From Candidatus Heimdallarchaeum endolithica (lineage in GTDB: Archaea; Asgardarchaeota; Heimdallarchaeia; Heimdallarchaeales; Heimdallarchaeaceae), in the NCBI GenBank assembly GCA_021513715.1, contig CP084167.1, forward strand, positions 1,984,001 through 2,048,000: a stretch of 64,000 nucleotides of DNA, in the 5' to 3' direction. Shown one piece after another: positions 9,120 through 56,305 of the stretch. The notes beneath the pieces are model-generated. The model was not told where the DNA came from, made no database searches, and saw only the letters and a program-made list of their open reading frames with translations. The position numbers and the translations under genes were made by a program. Each line of letters starts with the position of its first letter. Within the stretch, counting starts at the first letter, position 1.

Positions 9120-9232
9120 TGTTTTTCAAAAATATAATTAAATTAAAAAGATATCGAAAATGGTTTATTGCTAATAAAATTTTAACTATTTGTAAATTCA
9201 AATATTTATTCTAAAAAGACATGAAATAATTT

Positions 9233-9572
9233 TTACGTAAAAAATATTTTTTCAACAAAGAAGATATTAGAGAGAGGTCAAAAATGCATTTCAAAAACAA
9301 AAACACAAAATAACATAATAAAAGCGTCACAATTTTTCAGAGATATTTATATACTAAAATCACTTATATAAAGTGTCTTGAGCTATATGCTTTAAGACGT
9401 AGGTTTCAGTCCTACGACAGCCGGACTTCCCTATGGGAGTGATGAGTGCCGGGATCAGGAGATGAACCAGTTAGAGAACTTATTGAGACTGTGTCTCTTG
9501 TTCTCTTAAACCAATCCTCACAATCAGATTGTGTTGCTTGGTTGGGTAGAGTCCTGAAGAAATTACGTAAAA
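9233..9572 (+). mobile_element. Putative non-autonomous cassette bounded by TTACGTAAAA direct repeats, carrying a promoter and an omegaRNA-like RNA
   Basis: TTACGTAAAA at 9233-9242 and 9563-9572. The same core flanks the TnpB element at 47524 and 49349. Confidence 0.5.
9346..9353 (+). promoter_or_regulatory. Putative TATA box (TTTATATA) for the structured RNA
   Basis: About 22 nt upstream of the first hairpin. A second candidate, TTATATAAA, lies at 9364-9372. Confidence 0.45.
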
Positions 9573-9590
9573 TTTCAACTCATGATGCTT
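9375..9590 (+). ncRNA. Structured ncRNA, candidate stand-alone omegaRNA (scaffold plus 3' guide)
   Basis: Locally GC-richer intergenic island with stems GTCTTGAGC/GCTTTAAGAC, CGTAGG/CCTACG, CCGG-ACTTCC/GGGAGT-CCGG, and TCAGGA/TCCTGA enclosing AGAGAAC/GTTCTCT and AACCAA/TTGGTT arms; ends in GAAGAAATTACGTAAA. Confidence 0.65.
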
Positions 9591-22470: not shown

Positions 22471-22479
22471 CATGACTTA

Positions 22480-22585
22480 TTTTTTGACGTAAATTCGTAA
22501 AAATTAAGGGAAAATTGAATGTAAAAAAGAGAAAGGAAAGAAGGAATAGGGAAGAAAGGAAATGAGGGTTTTTATAGGGAAAAAA
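22480..22585 (+). promoter_or_regulatory. Copy of the TnpB-element left end and promoter
   Basis: TTTTTTGACGTAAATT, a purine-rich tract, then GGGTTTTTATAGGGAAAAAA (22566-22585), identical over 20 bp to the reverse complement of 49277-49296. Confidence 0.6.
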
Positions 22586-22667
22586 CTATAAGTAAGATTA
22601 AGCAAATGCGAGACAACATGAAAGCCAGAAAATTTTTGCTCTTATATATATTACCAGAGTAGTATTA

Positions 22668-47438: not shown

Positions 47439-47523
47439 CTATATTATCATCCCTTTTTATTTGAAAAATATATTTATTGATTCAGAATTATTTACATTAT
47501 AAACTAATTTATGATTTACTTTT

Positions 47524-47770
47524 TTACGTAAAGTTTTTCGCACTCTGTCTTGCAAGAGAGGAAACAAGTAAAAGTTTAATCTCTTGAACTCAACCAAGCC
47601 ATACAATGCTATGAAGGGGTTGAGACAGACATCATACACGAAGCGTGGGAATCATAAAGAAGAAAAGAAAGTTTTTCTTTCTTTTCTTCACTCCACGAGA
47701 GACAAAAAAGAAAGAGAGAAAACTAACTCTAACACAAGAGGAGAGAATTAGTCCTTTCCTTTTTTGTCTA
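47524..47770 (-). ncRNA. Putative omegaRNA scaffold downstream of tnpB
   Basis: Stems AGACAAAAAAG/CTTTTTTGTCT, CGTGG/CCACG with a 13-bp GAAGAAAAGAAAG hairpin, and TTCGTG/TGCGAA enclosing TCTGTCT/AGACAGA, CTCAACC/GGTTGAG and CAAGAGA/TCTCTTG; ends at the element boundary. Confidence 0.7.
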
Positions 47771-49219
47771 CTGGGGCTGCAACCAATGGCTGAGTCCTAG
47801 GCAAACAGTGAAATGAGTAGAACTGTATCGCTGACCAGTGAGGTAATCAGTAATAGTTGTTCCTCGAGGACGAAAAAGAGCACCAAGGAACTTAAGAGCG
47901 ATATTTATTGCTCCTGTGAGGTCAGAGTGGAAAGTGTAGTTGCAAGAGGGGCAATGGACTAAACCTCTAACGGGACGGATAACTTTCCTCCCACAACGAG
48001 CACAGTGAGAAGATGTTCCTCTTTCCTCCACAGTTAATATTCGGTGAGGTTCAAAACCTCGAAGTATCAATGCCCGACGGAGAAGAGTAAGAACAAGGTA
48101 AAAATTCCATTGATGAAGTTTCCTGCGAAAATTACGAGTACTTTTACCTTTTCCTTTCTCCTCACGAACATGTTTAGGGTAACCTACAACGACGAAAAGG
48201 TCATACACTTGTGCATAAGTTTCTATCGTATGCACAACTTCACTTATAAATTGGTGAATATAGGCTCGTTTAACGTTTTTATATCTTCTTCGGAGAAGAC
48301 CGAGAAAACGGTAAAGTTGGTGTTTTTTACCCGACTGGTCGTTTAAAGCTGCTTTCCTCTGAAGACGGGAAAGTTTGAGTTTATATCTATGATTGACTCT
48401 ATTCCACTGTTTGGTATACCAGAACTTTATCTCTTTGTTTGTTAATTTCTTTTTAGGGGTCAGTAACACTCCTGCAGCAGGAATGTTTATCCCTAGATCT
48501 ATTCCCAGCACAGCTGGAGGAAGAGAAGAAGAATTATCTTCTTTAGTAGGATAAAAGGAAGAAGGAAGAACTCTTAGTTGGAAATACACCCACCACTCAC
48601 GTGTAGAACGTTTATATCTTAGTTCTAAACTTTTTATTCTTCCTTTCTTTAACTCTTTCTGGTGGAAAGTGCTCATCTCTAAAGGTAACCATAGTTTCTG
48701 GTGGTAAGGGGTGTTTCTTTTCCACGTATCCAACGAGTCTCTTATCCCCACCCACCAACGAGTGAGAGTGTTATTCTTCTCTTTAGGTAAATGAACGAGA
48801 ATGAACCTCTTTGCATTAATTAGTTGTCTTCTCGCTCTCTTTATTGGAGGACGAGTAGGACTGGGTCTATACCCTTGCTCATATAGTTGAACAGCTATAT
48901 CTCTACATTCTTGGAATTCATTGTGAGAACAATAAGGGAACATTTTCTTAAGATCGTGAGGAACAGTCTTTCTTCTCTCTTTTTCTTTAACTTTTGAAGT
49001 CGTTAGCGTCAGTTCATCTAATTTTCCTCTATGTACTCTTATTTTCCCTTTTTTAGTTTTAGCACATATTTTTCTTCTATTGTGGTGTATTATTCTCACA
49101 TACTTTTCTATTATCCTCGTGTCTCTCCCCGTTATTCTCCTTAACCTTTCCTTCTTCCTCGTCGTCAATACCTCCTTCTTTATTCTCACTTTCAAGGTTT
49201 TGACGACGTCCTCCACCAT
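47768..49219 (-). CDS. tnpB: TnpB/Cas12f-like RNA-guided endonuclease with rearranged RuvC-II
   Basis: N-terminal KTLKVRI, RuvC-I LGIDLG, VVVGYP in place of VxEDL, VEERGTS, CARC/CPSC zinc ribbon, RuvC-III HSDLTGAINI. Confidence 0.88.
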   Translation of the reverse strand: MVEDVVKTLKVRIKKEVLTTRKKERLRRITGRDTRIIEKYVRIIHHNRRKICAKTKKGKIRVHRGKLDELTLTTSKVKEKERRKTVPHDLKKMFPYCSHNEFQECRDIAVQLYEQGYRPSPTRPPIKRARRQLINAKRFILVHLPKEKNNTLTRWWVGIRDSLDTWKRNTPYHQKLWLPLEMSTFHQKELKKGRIKSLELRYKRSTREWWVYFQLRVLPSSFYPTKEDNSSSLPPAVLGIDLGINIPAAGVLLTPKKKLTNKEIKFWYTKQWNRVNHRYKLKLSRLQRKAALNDQSGKKHQLYRFLGLLRRRYKNVKRAYIHQFISEVVHTIETYAQVYDLFVVVGYPKHVREEKGKGKSTRNFRRKLHQWNFYLVLTLLRRALILRGFEPHRILTVEERGTSSHCARCGRKVIRPVRGLVHCPSCNYTFHSDLTGAINIALKFLGALFRPRGTTITDYLTGQRYSSTHFTVCLGLSHWLQPQ

Positions 49220-49421
49220 CTTTCTCTTTTCTCCTTCTTTCCTCTTTTTTGTTTCTTCTTCTCTTTTTATTTTACTTTTTTTCCCTATAAAAACCCCTCT
49301 CCTTCCTCTCTTCTCTTTTTCCTCTCCTTCTTCCTCAACAACTGTAAATTACGTAAAAAATAGAAGCATGTTAGCCCAAAAGATAATAAAATTAATATAA
49401 ATTAGAGTACATGTCTAAAAT

Positions 49422-50377: not shown

Positions 50378-51127
50378 TCAACTATTTAAAGGAAAATAAA
50401 GAGGATAAATTATTTTTGCAAAGTTCTTATAGACTGGAACTCGATAATCGTATTGTTCAATTAATGAAGTTAATCTGATTATCTCAAATTCTGAATACGG
50501 TTTCATTCCTGGAAATTGCTCTGGATCTCCGTAATCTAGGATTTTATAGATTACCTCGTCCAATTCATTTAACTCTAAATAAACTTGAATTAATAAGTGG
50601 ATGTGAGGAGTTAGGAGTTCAACTTTCTTTTCTTCTTCAACTGAATTAACTATTCGCAATATTGAAAAGATCACTGCTCTTCGTGTGATGTAATCTTTTG
50701 AGTAAACCACTTCTTTCAAAGAAGATAAAATGTCAACGTCATCAAGATAACCTATTGCTCTAATAGCTGCATATTGTAAATCATAATCACTTTCTTCAAT
50801 AATTTTTTTGATAAAATCTTTCGAGGAATAGTCTCTTAACTGTCCCAGGATTTCTAATACAGACAGTTTTGTAGCTAAGGATCTCTTTTCAAGTAATTGA
50901 TGAAGCTTTAGTAGGATTTCCTCTTTTTTTTCTGGATAAAGATTAACGAGTTTAATTATAGTCAATGCTGTAGCGTTTCTTACATTCCAATCCTTGTCAC
51001 TTAAAAGTGGCAAAAGATTATTGATGTCCTTGTCTTTCCCCTTCTTTCTTAAAAAAAGAACAGCTTTTAGTCTATCTAAGTCTATTTCGCTTCCTAATTT
51101 TTTTATCATTAACCATCTTTTAAACAT
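50378..51127 (-). CDS. HEAT-repeat protein
   Basis: LLPLLSDKDWNVRNATA, IIEESDYDLQYAAIRAIG, VVYSKDYITRRAVI. Confidence 0.85.
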   Translation of the reverse strand: MFKRWLMIKKLGSEIDLDRLKAVLFLRKKGKDKDINNLLPLLSDKDWNVRNATALTIIKLVNLYPEKKEEILLKLHQLLEKRSLATKLSVLEILGQLRDYSSKDFIKKIIEESDYDLQYAAIRAIGYLDDVDILSSLKEVVYSKDYITRRAVIFSILRIVNSVEEEKKVELLTPHIHLLIQVYLELNELDEVIYKILDYGDPEQFPGMKPYSEFEIIRLTSLIEQYDYRVPVYKNFAKIIYPLYFPLNS

Positions 51128-52745
51128 AGTACATTCCTTCCTTTATTAGATAACTTATAGCGTTTCTTTGAGGTTGAGAGAGTTTCTTCAAATGTGTATA
51201 GTCTACTCGTTCAACTTCCATTTTCTCTTTTTCTTCATCGAGTTCAGTTTTGTATGCATCCTTTCTTTTCGTTACTTGAACAGCTCTAGTCACAATAGGC
51301 AAGTTATAGGGACTAATTGGTTGTTTTCTACTAATTTTATGGACAGCAAACAAAGTTGCAACGTGCATACCTCTGATTTTTTTGAAAGCGATAATGTCTG
51401 CAAAAGCAGGAAGTATGGTAGCAAAATCTTCACGATATAAAGCCATGTGATTATGCAAAATAACCAATTGATCTAGTCCCACACCTTCGTTATTGATTTC
51501 AAAGACATAAACTTTCTTTTCATCAACAGTTAAATATCCCTTGAATTCTATTTTTGGGTTATCATCCATCAATTGTCCAAAAGTACTGTATTTCTTTCTA
51601 TATATCTTTTTGATGTAATTTTCCAGTTGTGTCCAACCATAAGCATAAACAGACCAAATATCAGTGAAATTGGTAGTTGTTACATGCCAATCCTTTAACA
51701 CTTTTTCTGAATGAGCTCTTTTTTGTTCAGACACCCAATTTTTTAGCTCTTGCCAATCGAAAGTCTCAAGAAATTCTAAATCAGTCCTAAAGCTAAACAG
51801 TTTATCAAACAATCTTTTTTCAATTTCTTCTGACGAAAGGCTCTCCTTTTTCTCTTTTTCTATTTGTTCGCTTATAGCCAATTTTAGTTTATCAACTAAG
51901 AACAAACTTATTTTTCCAACAGGGGGAGCCATAAAGGGTTTAAGTTCTTTAGGAAGATTCTTGGGGACCTGTTTATTTTTATTCAAATAATCTAAATGCA
52001 TCCTTTGAATATAGAATGCAAATCCTTCATCGATTAAATCGTGGAGATGTTTCTTTCTTGATTCTTTTGCTCTTTCCTTTAGAACCTTAATAACCTCAAT
52101 TGAAAAGTTGTTGAATAAAGTGTATTTTCTTGCTTCTTCAGGAGGAGAATAAAAGTCTTGTACTCCAGCCTCAACAAACAATCGTATAACGCTTATTAGA
52201 TCCTGATAGTACTGCCAAGTCCACATCAACTGTTTGTTTGTTTCTTCGTTAATTTTGTAAGCATTATTTTGGAATAATTCTTTCAAAATTACATCTAATT
52301 GGTATATACGAGATAATTGTCTAGGATTATTGGATTCTGTTTTTTCATTCATATAGGCATGAGCAAAAGCATGAACTAGCATTATTCTCAAAGTTAATTT
52401 CTCTTCCTCTGTCAATTCATAACGAGGTGTTGAAAGATAAATTAAAGTAGGTATGCTGTTAAAAACTGTTTCTTTTCCTAACGGCATATATTCATTATTT
52501 CTTGCAGATTGTAGATGAACAACTTCTTCAGCAGTTAAGATTGCTTGGGGAGTTCCTGCACTTTCAATCACCCGATTAACAGAAATATGTAGGTCAGGGT
52601 TAAGAAATATTAGTATTCTATAATTCTCTGGTGTTTCTCCTACCAGTTCTAAGAAATCTTTTCTTGCTTTTAGATACACATTAATGATATCAGCTAATTC
52701 GTCTTTATGCATGGTAAATACTCTCCCGTAGTACTTGCTCTCCAA
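51120..52745 (-). CDS. Hypothetical protein with zincin/SpoVR-like metal-binding motifs
   Basis: LVHAFAH (HxxxH lacking the catalytic E) and downstream LIDEGFA. Start probably ATG 52712. Confidence 0.55.
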   Translation of the reverse strand: MESKYYGRVFTMHKDELADIINVYLKARKDFLELVGETPENYRILIFLNPDLHISVNRVIESAGTPQAILTAEEVVHLQSARNNEYMPLGKETVFNSIPTLIYLSTPRYELTEEEKLTLRIMLVHAFAHAYMNEKTESNNPRQLSRIYQLDVILKELFQNNAYKINEETNKQLMWTWQYYQDLISVIRLFVEAGVQDFYSPPEEARKYTLFNNFSIEVIKVLKERAKESRKKHLHDLIDEGFAFYIQRMHLDYLNKNKQVPKNLPKELKPFMAPPVGKISLFLVDKLKLAISEQIEKEKKESLSSEEIEKRLFDKLFSFRTDLEFLETFDWQELKNWVSEQKRAHSEKVLKDWHVTTTNFTDIWSVYAYGWTQLENYIKKIYRKKYSTFGQLMDDNPKIEFKGYLTVDEKKVYVFEINNEGVGLDQLVILHNHMALYREDFATILPAFADIIAFKKIRGMHVATLFAVHKISRKQPISPYNLPIVTRAVQVTKRKDAYKTELDEEKEKMEVERVDYTHLKKLSQPQRNAISYLIKEGMYYV

Positions 52746-54090
52746 GTTTGTTAATTTGTGCAGGATCTACTAAAATAGGTTTAGTTATACCTTTCAACAT
52801 TTGATACGTATGACTATAAATTTCCTTTTTTCTCAAAGCTTCTGTACCCATCAAAAAGTAACTTATGTTCCAATTTCTATTAGGATCTGATTTTAAGTGT
52901 TTAAATATTGCATTTAGTTGTAATAAGCATTCTATTGTCTCTGGACTGGTTTTAGTATCGATTGAATTGAAATAATTCTTTAATGAAGAACTAATTTTGT
53001 AATTAAATGGATAAACAGGTATGTTTGGCATACCATCTGTTACAATTGTAAGCTGAACATCGATATTTTTATGTTTATACTGTGCTTTAGCATGCTCAAT
53101 AGCTTTCAAAACACTGCTTACAGTATGTGTCTTTCCTTTTGCTTTAGCATTCAATAAAAGATCTTCCATTTTTGTATCATCATCTACTACAAATGGGTTT
53201 CTAACAATAGGAACTACTGCAAGTTGAAACATATCGTATCTTTTTCTTTTTCTCCTGTTGGCAGTCTTAAAGTAGTAATATAAACTTAGAGCAGTTAACA
53301 GAGCTCCATCTAACCTTGTCATTCCCCCCTCAAACACTTCTTTTTGCATTGATTGGCTCAAATCCACTAAGAAATATACTAAACTTCTTCTATCCTTTTT
53401 CACACGAATAATATCTTCTTGTTTTACGCGCGTTGGAGGAATTGATTGGGAACTAAGCACTGCACTTTTATAGGTTTCTCGAAGTCTAATTGTTCCTCTT
53501 GGGCGTTTTTGAACTTCATCAATAGGAAGAACATTGATTTGCTTTAATAGGTAATGCCCAAGGATGTTACCTAAAACATCCATCACTTCTTCTCGTTTTA
53601 TCCTCTTCTTTCTTCCATATGCATCTGTAATTTCCAAATCAACAATATCTTTAAGAGAGTTCAACTTATCTGCAAGAAGATTAAGATCAACTGTTCCCTC
53701 ATACTTCAGTTCTCGAAGTAAATTCTGGATGTATCGGATAATATCGTCCACTGTTTGAAGTTCATTCTTGTTTACGCGTTCTAGGACATCAGGGAGGACT
53801 CTATCTCCAATAAACTGTAATATTTTTAGTTCATTAATTAGTCTCTCTTCTTCTGCTTCAGTAAGATATGTTGTCATTATTTTTTGGAGTATGTTTTGGA
53901 TTGCAACAGCGTTTTTTGCACCTAAAGATAGTACAGCTCCTTCTCTAGAGCTCCTACCTAGGTGAGGATTACGCCAAAGTTTTAATAATTCAGCAGCACC
54001 TTCAAAGTCTAATATAAACTCAGCATCGCCGTAATTTTGTAGGGGGTCTCTAAACTCTGATTCCGTAAGTAAAAAAATTCGATGGGGCAT
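52705..54090 (-). CDS. von Willebrand factor A domain protein
   Basis: MIDAS motif FLVDLSQSM, GKT, IVTDGMPN; upstream IRLRET motif as seen in AAA-partner vWA proteins. Confidence 0.88.
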   Translation of the reverse strand: MPHRIFLLTESEFRDPLQNYGDAEFILDFEGAAELLKLWRNPHLGRSSREGAVLSLGAKNAVAIQNILQKIMTTYLTEAEEERLINELKILQFIGDRVLPDVLERVNKNELQTVDDIIRYIQNLLRELKYEGTVDLNLLADKLNSLKDIVDLEITDAYGRKKRIKREEVMDVLGNILGHYLLKQINVLPIDEVQKRPRGTIRLRETYKSAVLSSQSIPPTRVKQEDIIRVKKDRRSLVYFLVDLSQSMQKEVFEGGMTRLDGALLTALSLYYYFKTANRRKRKRYDMFQLAVVPIVRNPFVVDDDTKMEDLLLNAKAKGKTHTVSSVLKAIEHAKAQYKHKNIDVQLTIVTDGMPNIPVYPFNYKISSSLKNYFNSIDTKTSPETIECLLQLNAIFKHLKSDPNRNWNISYFLMGTEALRKKEIYSHTYQMLKGITKPILVDPAQINKLGEQVLRESIYHA

Positions 54091-54115
54091 TAGTTTTTGC
54101 CACCTTCACCAAATT

Positions 54116-55669
54116 TTAGATATAGTCTACCTTCAATAGAGCTTCATAACTCGGTTTGAGTTGTTCAACGATTTTAGGTAAAACATCTGATTCATAGTAT
54201 CGTTCTAGTTTTTCGTAATTGATAATCAATTCTGATAATTCTTCGTCACTTAATGCCTTCATCTTTGATATATCTTCACTTATATCTTCTGCTTTAACAG
54301 CCATTCCTGCGCTTTTAAGGTTGGACCTGAGTTTTATTTTTATTTCTTGTAGTGCATCATTTACCATTGCTAAAGGAATATCATAATCGTCTAATACTTT
54401 TCTTACATGTTCTATTGTAACAACATTATATTCTTCATCTTGGAGCTCTCGTTCTCTATTGAGCAACACGCTACCTACAATGTTTGATGTTGTACGTAAA
54501 TCTATATGTGGATTTCTTTGAGGATCATGAATTTCATCTAATCCTGCATAAAAGTCTAATCTTTGAACCCTGCTTTCAGAACGAATTCGTCCTTTTTTAA
54601 GAGCTTCTGGTAAAGAGTTGTTTCCAATGAATGCTAGGAAATCTATGGCTAATTTACTCACATAATCCTTCGAGCTTTTTTCTCGATCATATAATTGAAC
54701 AATACTTGGGTTTGCAGTTATTTTTTGTCTAGAGAGCGTAACTTGTTCTCTGAACATATCCCGAACAATTTGACTCCTACTTTCCACAGATCTTGCTGGC
54801 CAAAGAACTTCTGGAATACGATTGATAATAGGTTGTGATTCTTCTCCAAATACTGTTAAGGGAGCATTAGAAGTGAATATCATTGCTCCATCAATATAAA
54901 CAGGTTCACCTTGAAGATTATACTTTATTGAAGTTGTGTCTTCAAGAAATCCCATCAGTGCTTCAAGCAATGATAGGGGAAGACGCTGAATTTCGTTAAC
55001 TACAATAAAACCTTTACTAAGCACACCTACTTTATGTGATGTTGGAGTATAAGTTGTTGAAGTTTCCTTTCCAAACAGTTCTTCTAGATTCTCTACACCA
55101 GCTAATAGCATATAGAGGCTTTCAGGGTCTGTTCTTGGGTCAAGTTGTGCTTTCCGTACAACAGTTTTTTCCACACCGATTTTCAATAATTTTTCTTTGA
55201 ATTCAGCAGGTTTAATTTTAAGTATACTAGATGTATTATCTAATTTTACATCTCCTTTTCCATCACTCAAAGCATTTTCTATTTTAGTTCGACAGAAAGG
55301 ACAAAGAGATTGTAAGACCCTTATCCCATTAAAAGGATCAACTTCAAATTGCTCTACAACATCAATAATGTATCCTGCATCCTCAAGGAAAGGACAGGAA
55401 TCAATATGATACTTATGATCATTAATTTCTCGAACAATGTGATCTAGGAGAATACGACTGAATAGCGTTTTAGCTTCTCCTGTAGGACCTGTAATAAGCA
55501 CTTTTCCTCCGACAGCAAGCTTATCCATGACTAAATTCTTTGCGTCTTCATTTCCTCTAACACTTGGATCATTGATTACACGTTTTCTAAATTCGTTATT
55601 CATTAATATATGCCTAACTGAATACCCTTTATAGCCAGTTTTTATTAATTCCTCAACTGTATTGACCAT
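54116..55669 (-). CDS. AAA+ ATPase (MoxR/Mg-chelatase-like, Rv0958-type)
   Basis: N-terminal TVEELIKTGY..SVR, Walker A GPTGEAKT, Walker B IVVNE, sensor FTSN, arginine finger IINRI. Confidence 0.8.
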   Translation of the reverse strand: MVNTVEELIKTGYKGYSVRHILMNNEFRKRVINDPSVRGNEDAKNLVMDKLAVGGKVLITGPTGEAKTLFSRILLDHIVREINDHKYHIDSCPFLEDAGYIIDVVEQFEVDPFNGIRVLQSLCPFCRTKIENALSDGKGDVKLDNTSSILKIKPAEFKEKLLKIGVEKTVVRKAQLDPRTDPESLYMLLAGVENLEELFGKETSTTYTPTSHKVGVLSKGFIVVNEIQRLPLSLLEALMGFLEDTTSIKYNLQGEPVYIDGAMIFTSNAPLTVFGEESQPIINRIPEVLWPARSVESRSQIVRDMFREQVTLSRQKITANPSIVQLYDREKSSKDYVSKLAIDFLAFIGNNSLPEALKKGRIRSESRVQRLDFYAGLDEIHDPQRNPHIDLRTTSNIVGSVLLNRERELQDEEYNVVTIEHVRKVLDDYDIPLAMVNDALQEIKIKLRSNLKSAGMAVKAEDISEDISKMKALSDEELSELIINYEKLERYYESDVLPKIVEQLKPSYEALLKVDYI

Positions 55670-55705
55670 TTAAATGCACCATTTATCATTCTTTCAAGTA
55701 AAGAT

Positions 55706-56305
55706 TTAAGATTCATTATCATTTTTCTTATCTACAATAACAATCTTTTTTTGAGAAAGTTTAGTTTTAAGACTTTCTTTTCTTTCCCAATCTAATGTCC
55801 AACCCATCCATATCGCTTCCTTAAGCCAGTTTAATGCGCTTAATAAGTCGTTAACGTCTCCAACCTCAAATAGCTTCCAAACCCTATCTGTTAATCTAAC
55901 AAGCGACAGATTCTCTATCAGTTCTCCACTTGTTAAAGAGCCTTGTAAATTACTATTATAAGCACAAATTGCTATTGGTTTTTCTCTTAGATCCTCGTTC
56001 CAAATGATTCTTTCCCAAAAGAAAGCTCGCTCATGCTTAATCATATCTTCTTTTGTAGCATCGATAAGATATAAAATCCCCTCAAATGTTTCGAAAAGTT
56101 TAGGCTTAAACTTAAACTTGTCTTCAACTGGAAGCTTAGAAAGATAGTCATCTAAAAGAAAATCATCAATTGAGATTTCTGCATTTAACAGTTTTACTCT
56201 ATTTCTAGCTGCTGGAGTATCATTTCCCATAATCAATATTGAAACTTCTGGCTTTCCCAATCGTCTTCGAATTGAGAGCAATAGTTGATTTATTTTGTTG
56301 GACAT
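55706..56305 (-). CDS. Arf-like small GTPase homolog with degenerate G motifs (pseudo-GTPase)
   Basis: EVSILIMG, GILYLIDAT and DLREKPIAICAYNSNL...LSLVRLTDRVW follow Arf spacing, but GKT, DxxG and NKxD are absent. Confidence 0.7.
   Translation of the reverse strand: MSNKINQLLLSIRRRLGKPEVSILIMGNDTPAARNRVKLLNAEISIDDFLLDDYLSKLPVEDKFKFKPKLFETFEGILYLIDATKEDMIKHERAFFWERIIWNEDLREKPIAICAYNSNLQGSLTSGELIENLSLVRLTDRVWKLFEVGDVNDLLSALNWLKEAIWMGWTLDWERKESLKTKLSQKKIVIVDKKNDNES

Follow-up and report, generated by a model that had tools for sequence, protein, structure and literature searches.

Introduction

Several groups of prokaryotic TnpB proteins with a rearranged RuvC site have been described: TnpB2, which includes TvTnpB (Jiang 2023, PMC10530073), RIIr-5 (Altae-Tran 2023, PMC10691335) and a D-phi-G/Ealt clade (Yoon 2023, PMC10711439). 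They carry Gly at the RuvC-II position, an alternative Glu (Ealt) six residues before the zinc finger, D-phi-G at RuvC-I and an RNA at the right end of the element. Activity of the rearranged site has already been demonstrated in Thermoplasma TvTnpB (PMC10530073). In ApmFz2, a mimivirus Fanzor2, the alternative Glu E467 has been demonstrated to be catalytic (PMC10530073). The fingerprint of Fanzors and pro-Fanzors is DPG together with the alternative Glu, and D-phi-G with that Glu marks another clade (Yoon 2023, PMC10711439).

Here we describe a TnpB element of Candidatus Heimdallarchaeum endolithica, located in a stretch of 64,000 nucleotides (positions 1,984,001 to 2,048,000 of contig CP084167.1) that we call the window; positions refer to it unless they are given as genome positions. 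The element shares the abovementioned features of the rearranged prokaryotic TnpBs, but its protein is longer (483 aa), it has no Y1 TnpA, its ends are inverted with an AT core and not IS605 hairpins, and its predicted TAM is VCAT instead of the NTGAC of TvTnpB. Like the IS1341-type tnpB-only elements and the omegaRNA-bearing PATEs (Meers 2023), it is non-autonomous and multi-copy, and its gene-less relatives resemble PATEs in being RNA-carrying miniatures that share ends. In contrast to both, it is bounded by true inverted repeats, in which the inner sequence co-varies between left and right across lineages, not by sub-terminal hairpins. With IS607 tnpB elements (CboIStron) it has in common a 2-bp core within the TAM and a right end with a single-base difference from the TAM, whereas the core is AT and not GG, the ends are symmetric and the genome is without IS607 TnpA.

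The nearest relatives are the aCas1-associated TnpBs of Cas1H-Asgard-1 and -2 (PMC10691335), at 30-35% identity, which have a Cas1-fold gene alongside; the element studied here has neither aCas1 nor the GTTCACTCA motif. Fanzor2 (ApmFz2, PDB 9b0l) and the cyanobacterial pro-Fanzors resemble our protein in the alternative Glu, in Gly or Pro at RuvC-II, in length and fold, and in an RNA reaching past the ORF. They differ from it in DPG, in their link to IS607 TnpA and in forming a separate clade, and identity is about 17-19%.

Extent of the element and its target site

The genome is a single contig of 3,326,783 bp. The element measures 1,859 bp (47511-49369) and holds tnpB only, with no transposase (Table 1). 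The initial annotation had placed it at 47524-49357, and the true element proved to be 12-13 nt longer at each end. Palindromes of the type TTACGTAA were rejected as boundaries because conservation runs 12-13 nt beyond them. The genome has twelve full-length copies with 80-92% nucleotide identity, eight of them with whole ORFs, together with two 504-aa TnpB relatives and many fragments.

Table 1. Features of the tnpB element and its flanks, with positions in the window
Feature	Position	Strand	Remark
Predicted guide, from read-through of the right end into the host flank	47491-47510	minus	at 14 nt, occurs once in the genome; prediction from the TnpB model
Right-end inverted repeat; the element strand finishes T-CAT	47511-47536	plus
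Candidate omegaRNA scaffold, through the right-end inverted repeat	47511-47767	minus	fold and conservation
tnpB gene, 483 aa, RuvC-II-rearranged (D-phi-G and alternative Glu), Asgard-specific family	47768-49219	minus
RuvC-III catalytic Asp433, HSDLTGA	47921-47923	minus	invariant
C4 zinc finger C406, C409, C423, C426 (CxxC pairs 406/409 and 423/426)	47942-48004	minus	invariant; PF07282
Glu399, predicted alternative catalytic Glu, VEERGTS, E-x6-C before the zinc finger	48023-48025	minus	invariant; Fanzor2 alignment
Gly346 at the canonical RuvC-II Glu position, VVVGYP	48182-48184	minus	invariant; ends strand 340-347 (DSSP on the model)
RuvC-I catalytic Asp241, GIDLG, D-phi-G and not the Fanzor DPG	48497-48499	minus	invariant, 93/93
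TATA-like box, some 70 nt before the start codon, kept in related elements	49285-49293	minus	putative promoter
Left-end inverted repeat, 18/26 bases equal to the right end	49344-49369	minus
Target motif and predicted TAM: ACAT here, V-CAT consensus; AT is the duplicated core	49368-49371	minus

The inverted ends are about 25 bp long, and in other element types they agree at 17-21 bases. The inner end sequence co-varies in another genus, where the left end of the L026 type matches its own right end at 21 positions and the right end of the window element at 9.

All copies read flank-C-AT-G... at the left and ...T-C-AT-flank at the right. C stands before AT in 22 of 23 left flanks (background 15%, p=2e-17), and T is found at position -4 in only one of the 23 (background 37%, p=3e-4), whereas the right ends of this TnpB element family read TCAT. 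Insertion sites of V-CAT against a T-CAT right end predict a VCAT TAM with self-avoidance. In this genome, type A favours a purine at -4 and type B favours C, but this subfamily-specific preference fails in H. aukensis, and therefore we retained only "not T".

Two insertions in H. aukensis (L133, L137) correspond to empty sites in our genome, each with a single CAT. At 7 of 14 sites, long reading frames of the host are restored when the element is taken out together with one AT, and there other frames do not restore them. A 4-bp CATG duplication was rejected because the fourth base is not the same at both ends. Unrelated TnpB types with ends of a similar style retain just AT, which makes AT the core that is duplicated or crossed over. 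Movement of the elements took place after H. aukensis had split off.

At the H. aukensis ortholog of the window junction 47511/49370 (L157) the element is absent, and 14 extra bases including ATG and GTAAATC are present; these are possibly a scar left by imprecise loss, excision or repair. The copy at genome 3321690-3323548 is a mosaic that combines a type-A left end with a type-B right end, which suggests that copies have recombined. A solo left-end remnant of the element family lies in the window at 22472-22600 (plus strand), between genes for proteins of 472 aa and 457 aa without Pfam match. The full element is adjoined on one side by a cluster of HEAT-repeat, unknown, vWA, AAA-ATPase and Arf-like GTPase genes (50378-56305, minus strand) and has uvrB-uvrC on the opposite side. 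A bacterial promoter scan was uninformative.

The TnpB protein

The 483-aa ORF matches the TnpB/Cas12f zinc-finger domain PF07282; the match to NF040570 is below the cut-off. Identity as Cas12f (CRISPR type V-F) was rejected, with NF049972 at 60 versus 450 bits and neither a CRISPR array nor cas genes adjoining tnpB, which lies among uvrB and host genes. The family to which the protein belongs is Asgard, occurring in Heimdallarchaeia and Thorarchaeota, and the closest matches to the protein belong to Ca. Heimdallarchaeum aukensis (89%) and Heimdallarchaeaceae, in line with the Asgard host that had been proposed from the letters of the window.

Residue conservation was scored over 93 homologues with 33-91% identity to the 483-aa TnpB. 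In the alignment, 93 of 93 keep D241, G243, G346, E399, D433 and the four Cys, which confirms the RuvC motifs GIDLG, VVVGYP and HSDLTGA of the initial annotation. The latter had also proposed a relocated Glu just before the zinc ribbon. E398, the first Glu of EERGTS, varies among the homologues and E399 is invariant, so the relocated Glu is E399, located 53 residues past G346 and separated from the first zinc-finger Cys by six residues. By profile alignment it corresponds to E500 of a giant-virus Fanzor2, which in turn aligns with ApmFz2 E467. The position after D241 is occupied by L, I or M in 93/93 homologues and by Pro in 0/93. In this sub-lineage, the usual Asn of the DxN motif is replaced by T435.

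In the AF2 model (pLDDT 85), G346 and E399 lie at the ends of two RuvC strands adjacent in number, 340-347 and 394-398. The same strand-end layout of Gly and alternative Glu has been described for RIIr-5 TnpBs (PMC10691335). The best fold matches of the model are AsCas12f (Z 19.8), ISDra2 TnpB (17.9) and ApmFz2 (PDB 9b0l, 16.0). Comparison of the other copies with the window copy gave dN/dS of 0.13-0.20, about 0.15 as a rough estimate; the protein is under purifying selection. This TnpB is probably an active RNA-guided nuclease, in which E399 would stand in for the lost RuvC-II Glu, as residue invariance and tested relatives suggest.

The omegaRNA and the guide

The 257 nt from the stop codon to the right end fold far more stably than shuffled sequences (z = -5.9). 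A variable hairpin directly follows the stop codon, and the conserved core of the scaffold extends over 47699-47511; conservation among copies stops exactly after CAT. A few compensatory pairs were seen among 24 copies, and hairpin loops expand and contract. A search of the scaffold against Rfam gave nothing near gathering scores. An earlier reading had a long omegaRNA lying entirely downstream of the ORF, which stands for the conserved structured scaffold and applies to the scaffold only.

No second CAT-adjacent target for the guides was found in the genome. A structured right-end RNA with a flank-derived guide is an OMEGA feature, and computationally it is present in this element. What is useful here is a predicted, probably active RNA-guided nuclease with a computed guide boundary, a scaffold and a short predicted TAM, VCAT.

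A K-turn-like internal loop at 47650-47699 (minus strand), with GUGA opposite UAUGAU, closes a long purine/pyrimidine hairpin of the omegaRNA and is a possible L7Ae site. About 20 gene-less elements of 360-380 bp, with the same ends and a homologous RNA, occur in the genome. One of them, 363 bp long, lies in the window at 9221-9583 (plus strand) and has AT-core inverted ends and an omegaRNA-like region, which is closest to related elements of another genus (L024 type). It has about 20 relatives in the genome and 11 matches in H. aukensis, and is a candidate trans-acting guide cassette.

Proposed mode of action

We consider it likely that the element is a non-autonomous tnpB-only transposon that functions in the manner of other TnpB transposons. 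Transcription across its right end would yield the omegaRNA, with the neighbouring host DNA serving as the guide. TnpB would bind this RNA and cut double-stranded DNA that carries the guide sequence beside a 5'-VCAT TAM, using D241, E399 and D433, with E399 replacing the RuvC-II Glu. VCAT and the guide match would come together only at an empty allele, either excised or on the sister chromosome. At the occupied site the guide match would be preceded by T-CAT, and TCAT at the right end would thus spare the donor. The element would be regained by repair templated on the occupied copy, so the nuclease would be a retention or homing device, and movement would need an integrase in trans.

Such a relation between TAM and right end has been demonstrated for IS607 TnpB (TGGG versus TCGG; 10.1101/2023.11.20.567912), and the retention role for IS605 (Meers 2023, 10.1101/2023.03.14.532601). 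Self-avoidance is weakened as an explanation in that the bias at -4 could stem from the integrase alone. A further point against the proposed mode of action is that a transposase with matching ends was not found in the genome.

Activity and relation to Fanzors

For the phylogeny, DPG/Ealt proteins were collected from giant-virus contigs and supplemented with a Nostoc pro-Fanzor-like protein. The tree covered 127 rows and 214 columns of the RuvC/zinc-finger region and was a quick LG+G4 analysis with SH-aLRT supports only, without Fanzor1 and TvTnpB and with 23 of 47 DPG rows dropped at random; its being quick, short and free of Fanzor1 also counts against our preferred explanation. Giant-virus Fanzor2 and the Nostoc protein formed one group (SH-aLRT 99). 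Our TnpB was placed several supported branches away, inside the prokaryotic D-phi-G/Ealt TnpBs, and the closest outside relatives of its family are likewise D-phi-G/Gly/Ealt. Constraining the Heimdall family and Fanzor2 together was 65 log units worse (AU p=0.008, with the junk row L223 removed and two non-DPG rows nested in Fanzor2 added to that group post hoc).

The protein thus has Gly at RuvC-II, the alternative Glu six residues before the zinc finger (E399-x6-C406), D-phi-G, intact RuvC-I and RuvC-III and a C4 finger, and it nests among prokaryotic TnpBs of the same kind. It has DLG where Fanzors have DPG, and it does not group with the Fanzor2/pro-Fanzor clade. The initial annotation had regarded Gly plus a relocated Glu as the Fanzor hallmark and the locus as relevant to Fanzor origins, and had stated that grouping with ordinary TnpBs would remove the link. 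The arrangement is indeed shared with Fanzors, but it is common in prokaryotic TnpBs and the fingerprint also needs DPG. The special relevance to Fanzor origins was not borne out: with Fanzor2 and pro-Fanzors sampled and Fanzor1 outside the sample, the query groups with prokaryotic TnpBs, and therefore, by the annotation's own criterion, the link is removed. Two unrelated TnpBs of this genome, one accompanied by Y1 TnpA, have the same rearrangement. The rearranged RuvC site is established and widespread and does not tie our protein to Fanzors; the catalytic layout is shared with them only through a broad radiation of rearranged TnpBs, without a close Asgard-eukaryote link. It is worth stressing that Fanzor ancestry cannot be deduced from Gly plus a relocated Glu in an Asgard genome.

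An Asgard TnpB near the origin of Fanzors, acquired by eukaryotes through the archaeal host lineage, would agree with the Asgard host, the Gly and alternative Glu, a Fanzor-like layout (inverted ends, a short duplication, RNA past the ORF) and the presence of ApmFz2 among the top folds, and archaeal inheritance is allowed by Jiang et al. (PMC10530073). We regard such an origin as highly improbable in view of DLG instead of DPG, the tree placement with its AU result, and the better fold matches to AsCas12f and ISDra2 TnpB. Sequence searches speak the same way: a giant-virus Fanzor2 query matches Nostoc/Trichormus proteins over the full length at 1e-35, reaches 3e-13 at best in 331 Asgard genomes, and in our genome prefers the IS605 TnpB. 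Binding without cutting, which would make the protein an RNA-guided repressor or a degenerate passenger, would be in keeping with T435 in place of the DxN Asn and with the element missing from the orthologous H. aukensis site. It seems quite improbable to us, as the three acidic residues are all invariant, dN/dS is about 0.15 and relatives with the same arrangement cut DNA (PMC10530073).

Relation to aCas1-associated TnpBs

At 20 of 53 more distant loci, mostly from Thorarchaeota, a gene for a protein of 1,400-1,900 aa stands head-to-head with tnpB. The N-terminal domain of this protein (aCas1) has the Cas1 catalytic fold: the top 12 matches are Cas1 or casposase (Z 8.9-13.1), and the first unrelated fold follows at Z 6.4. 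The likeness comes from the fold search only, the search of the aCas1 profile against PDB by sequence having returned nothing. This TnpB family is found alongside at 26 of 30 aCas1 loci, and the loci bear GTTCACTCA, the motif reported for the Cas1H-Asgard groups (PMC10691335). The aCas1-TnpB pair is also present in another family of the host's order.

The TnpB under study lies inside the aCas1-linked clade (SH-aLRT 97). Its family either derives from the Asgard aCas1-linked TnpBs or is their sister. Unfiltered profile searches of the complete genome did not find aCas1 (best E 0.06-0.14), and in 30 further genomes from the host family profile searches yielded 0/30. The element is an offshoot of the Asgard aCas1-TnpB lineage, solo, bounded by inverted repeats and recently mobile.

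In L140 (1091-6211) and L142 (817-5400), the aCas1 of 1,400-1,900 aa has an N-terminal Cas1 helical domain followed by a PD-(D/E)xK-like motif; up to 7 aCas1 copies occur per Thorarchaeota genome. At the Thorarchaeota loci L069, L071-L076 and L081, a short hairpin unit lies about 110 nt upstream of tnpB, between aCas1 and tnpB. It is flanked by two TATA-like boxes and holds GAGTGAAC, complementary to a downstream GTTCACTC motif; this is possibly a split, tracr-like two-RNA guide. In L072 (5871-7994), a second TnpB of the same family, with 708 codons, lies directly downstream of the first.

Search for the mobilising enzyme

A genome-wide scan between such ends revealed no gene other than tnpB. 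The single Y1 TnpA gene of the genome has its own IS605 right end, while the ends of our element are inverted repeats and not asymmetric hairpins. Two stand-alone serine recombinase genes (PF00239) fall under the IS607 TnpA cut-off (42 and 25 versus 110 bits), an IS607 serine TnpA with cognate ends was not found in the genome, and true IS607 elements in relatives have left ends that are unrelated to these. The four multi-copy DDE families likewise end in unrelated sequences and make longer duplications, and the four CRISPR Cas1 matches lie outside such ends. The HerA-like neighbour seen in some relatives was also rejected, being an ATPase at an apparently fixed locus: in one genus (L031, L036, L041, L078), TnpB sits at an apparently fixed spot downstream of the HerA-like ATPase gene and has a longer left region.

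The family is a recently mobile one with inverted AT-core ends, whose mobiliser was not found in the complete genome and whose sister proteins stand beside Asgard aCas1. A serine recombinase could act by IS607-style crossover at AT, with no true duplication and scarless excision, perhaps through a stand-alone resolvase in trans. The invariant 2-bp core common to different TnpB types in the genome, the directional target bias, the repeated sub-terminal motifs and the close IS607 parallel (10.1101/2023.11.20.567912) agree with it, as does the presence of the two PF00239 genes. Both genes, however, are single-copy, under the cut-off and outside such ends, the left ends of true IS607 elements in relatives are unrelated to those studied here, and IS607 ends are reported to be asymmetric (PMC10691335); we find this route possible, if doubtful. 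A Cas1-type integrase (aCas1), either too diverged to detect or recently lost, could instead move the elements in trans, and the inverted ends and AT duplication would then be products of Cas1-like integration. It is a predicted transposase (PNAS 2023, PMC10691335), it accompanies the sister TnpBs head-to-head and in the host's order, and the end motifs are alike, with ACTCA at right ends. Its absence from the searches of this genome and of the host family, although elements moved after the H. aukensis split, makes it unlikely. An undetected DDE enzyme is a further candidate.

On the origin of the family we offer only a tentative suggestion, which we would not expect to hold in full: the recently active Heimdallarchaeia family of inverted-repeat, AT-core TnpB transposons would have come from Asgard aCas1-TnpB modules and be moved in trans by a Cas1-type or otherwise undescribed integrase, with several unrelated TnpBs and gene-less omegaRNA cassettes sharing ends. 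If true, it would offer a testable mobile system of Cas1 plus TnpB and an independent prokaryotic arrival at a Fanzor-like layout.

Ends of the same AT-core style enclose unrelated TnpBs at genome 597977-599492, 2688068-2689554, 3216736-3218223, 2833334-2834680, 709115-710903 and 1464618-1466406. The types found there are a 414-aa rearranged TnpB, a 445-aa TnpB with the canonical Glu and the 504-aa relative, suggesting one shared mobiliser and repeated exchange of the nuclease. An IS605 element at genome 923909-925890 holds Y1 TnpA and a D-phi-G/Ealt TnpB, and its tnpA carries an inserted 380-bp miniature at the 5' end.
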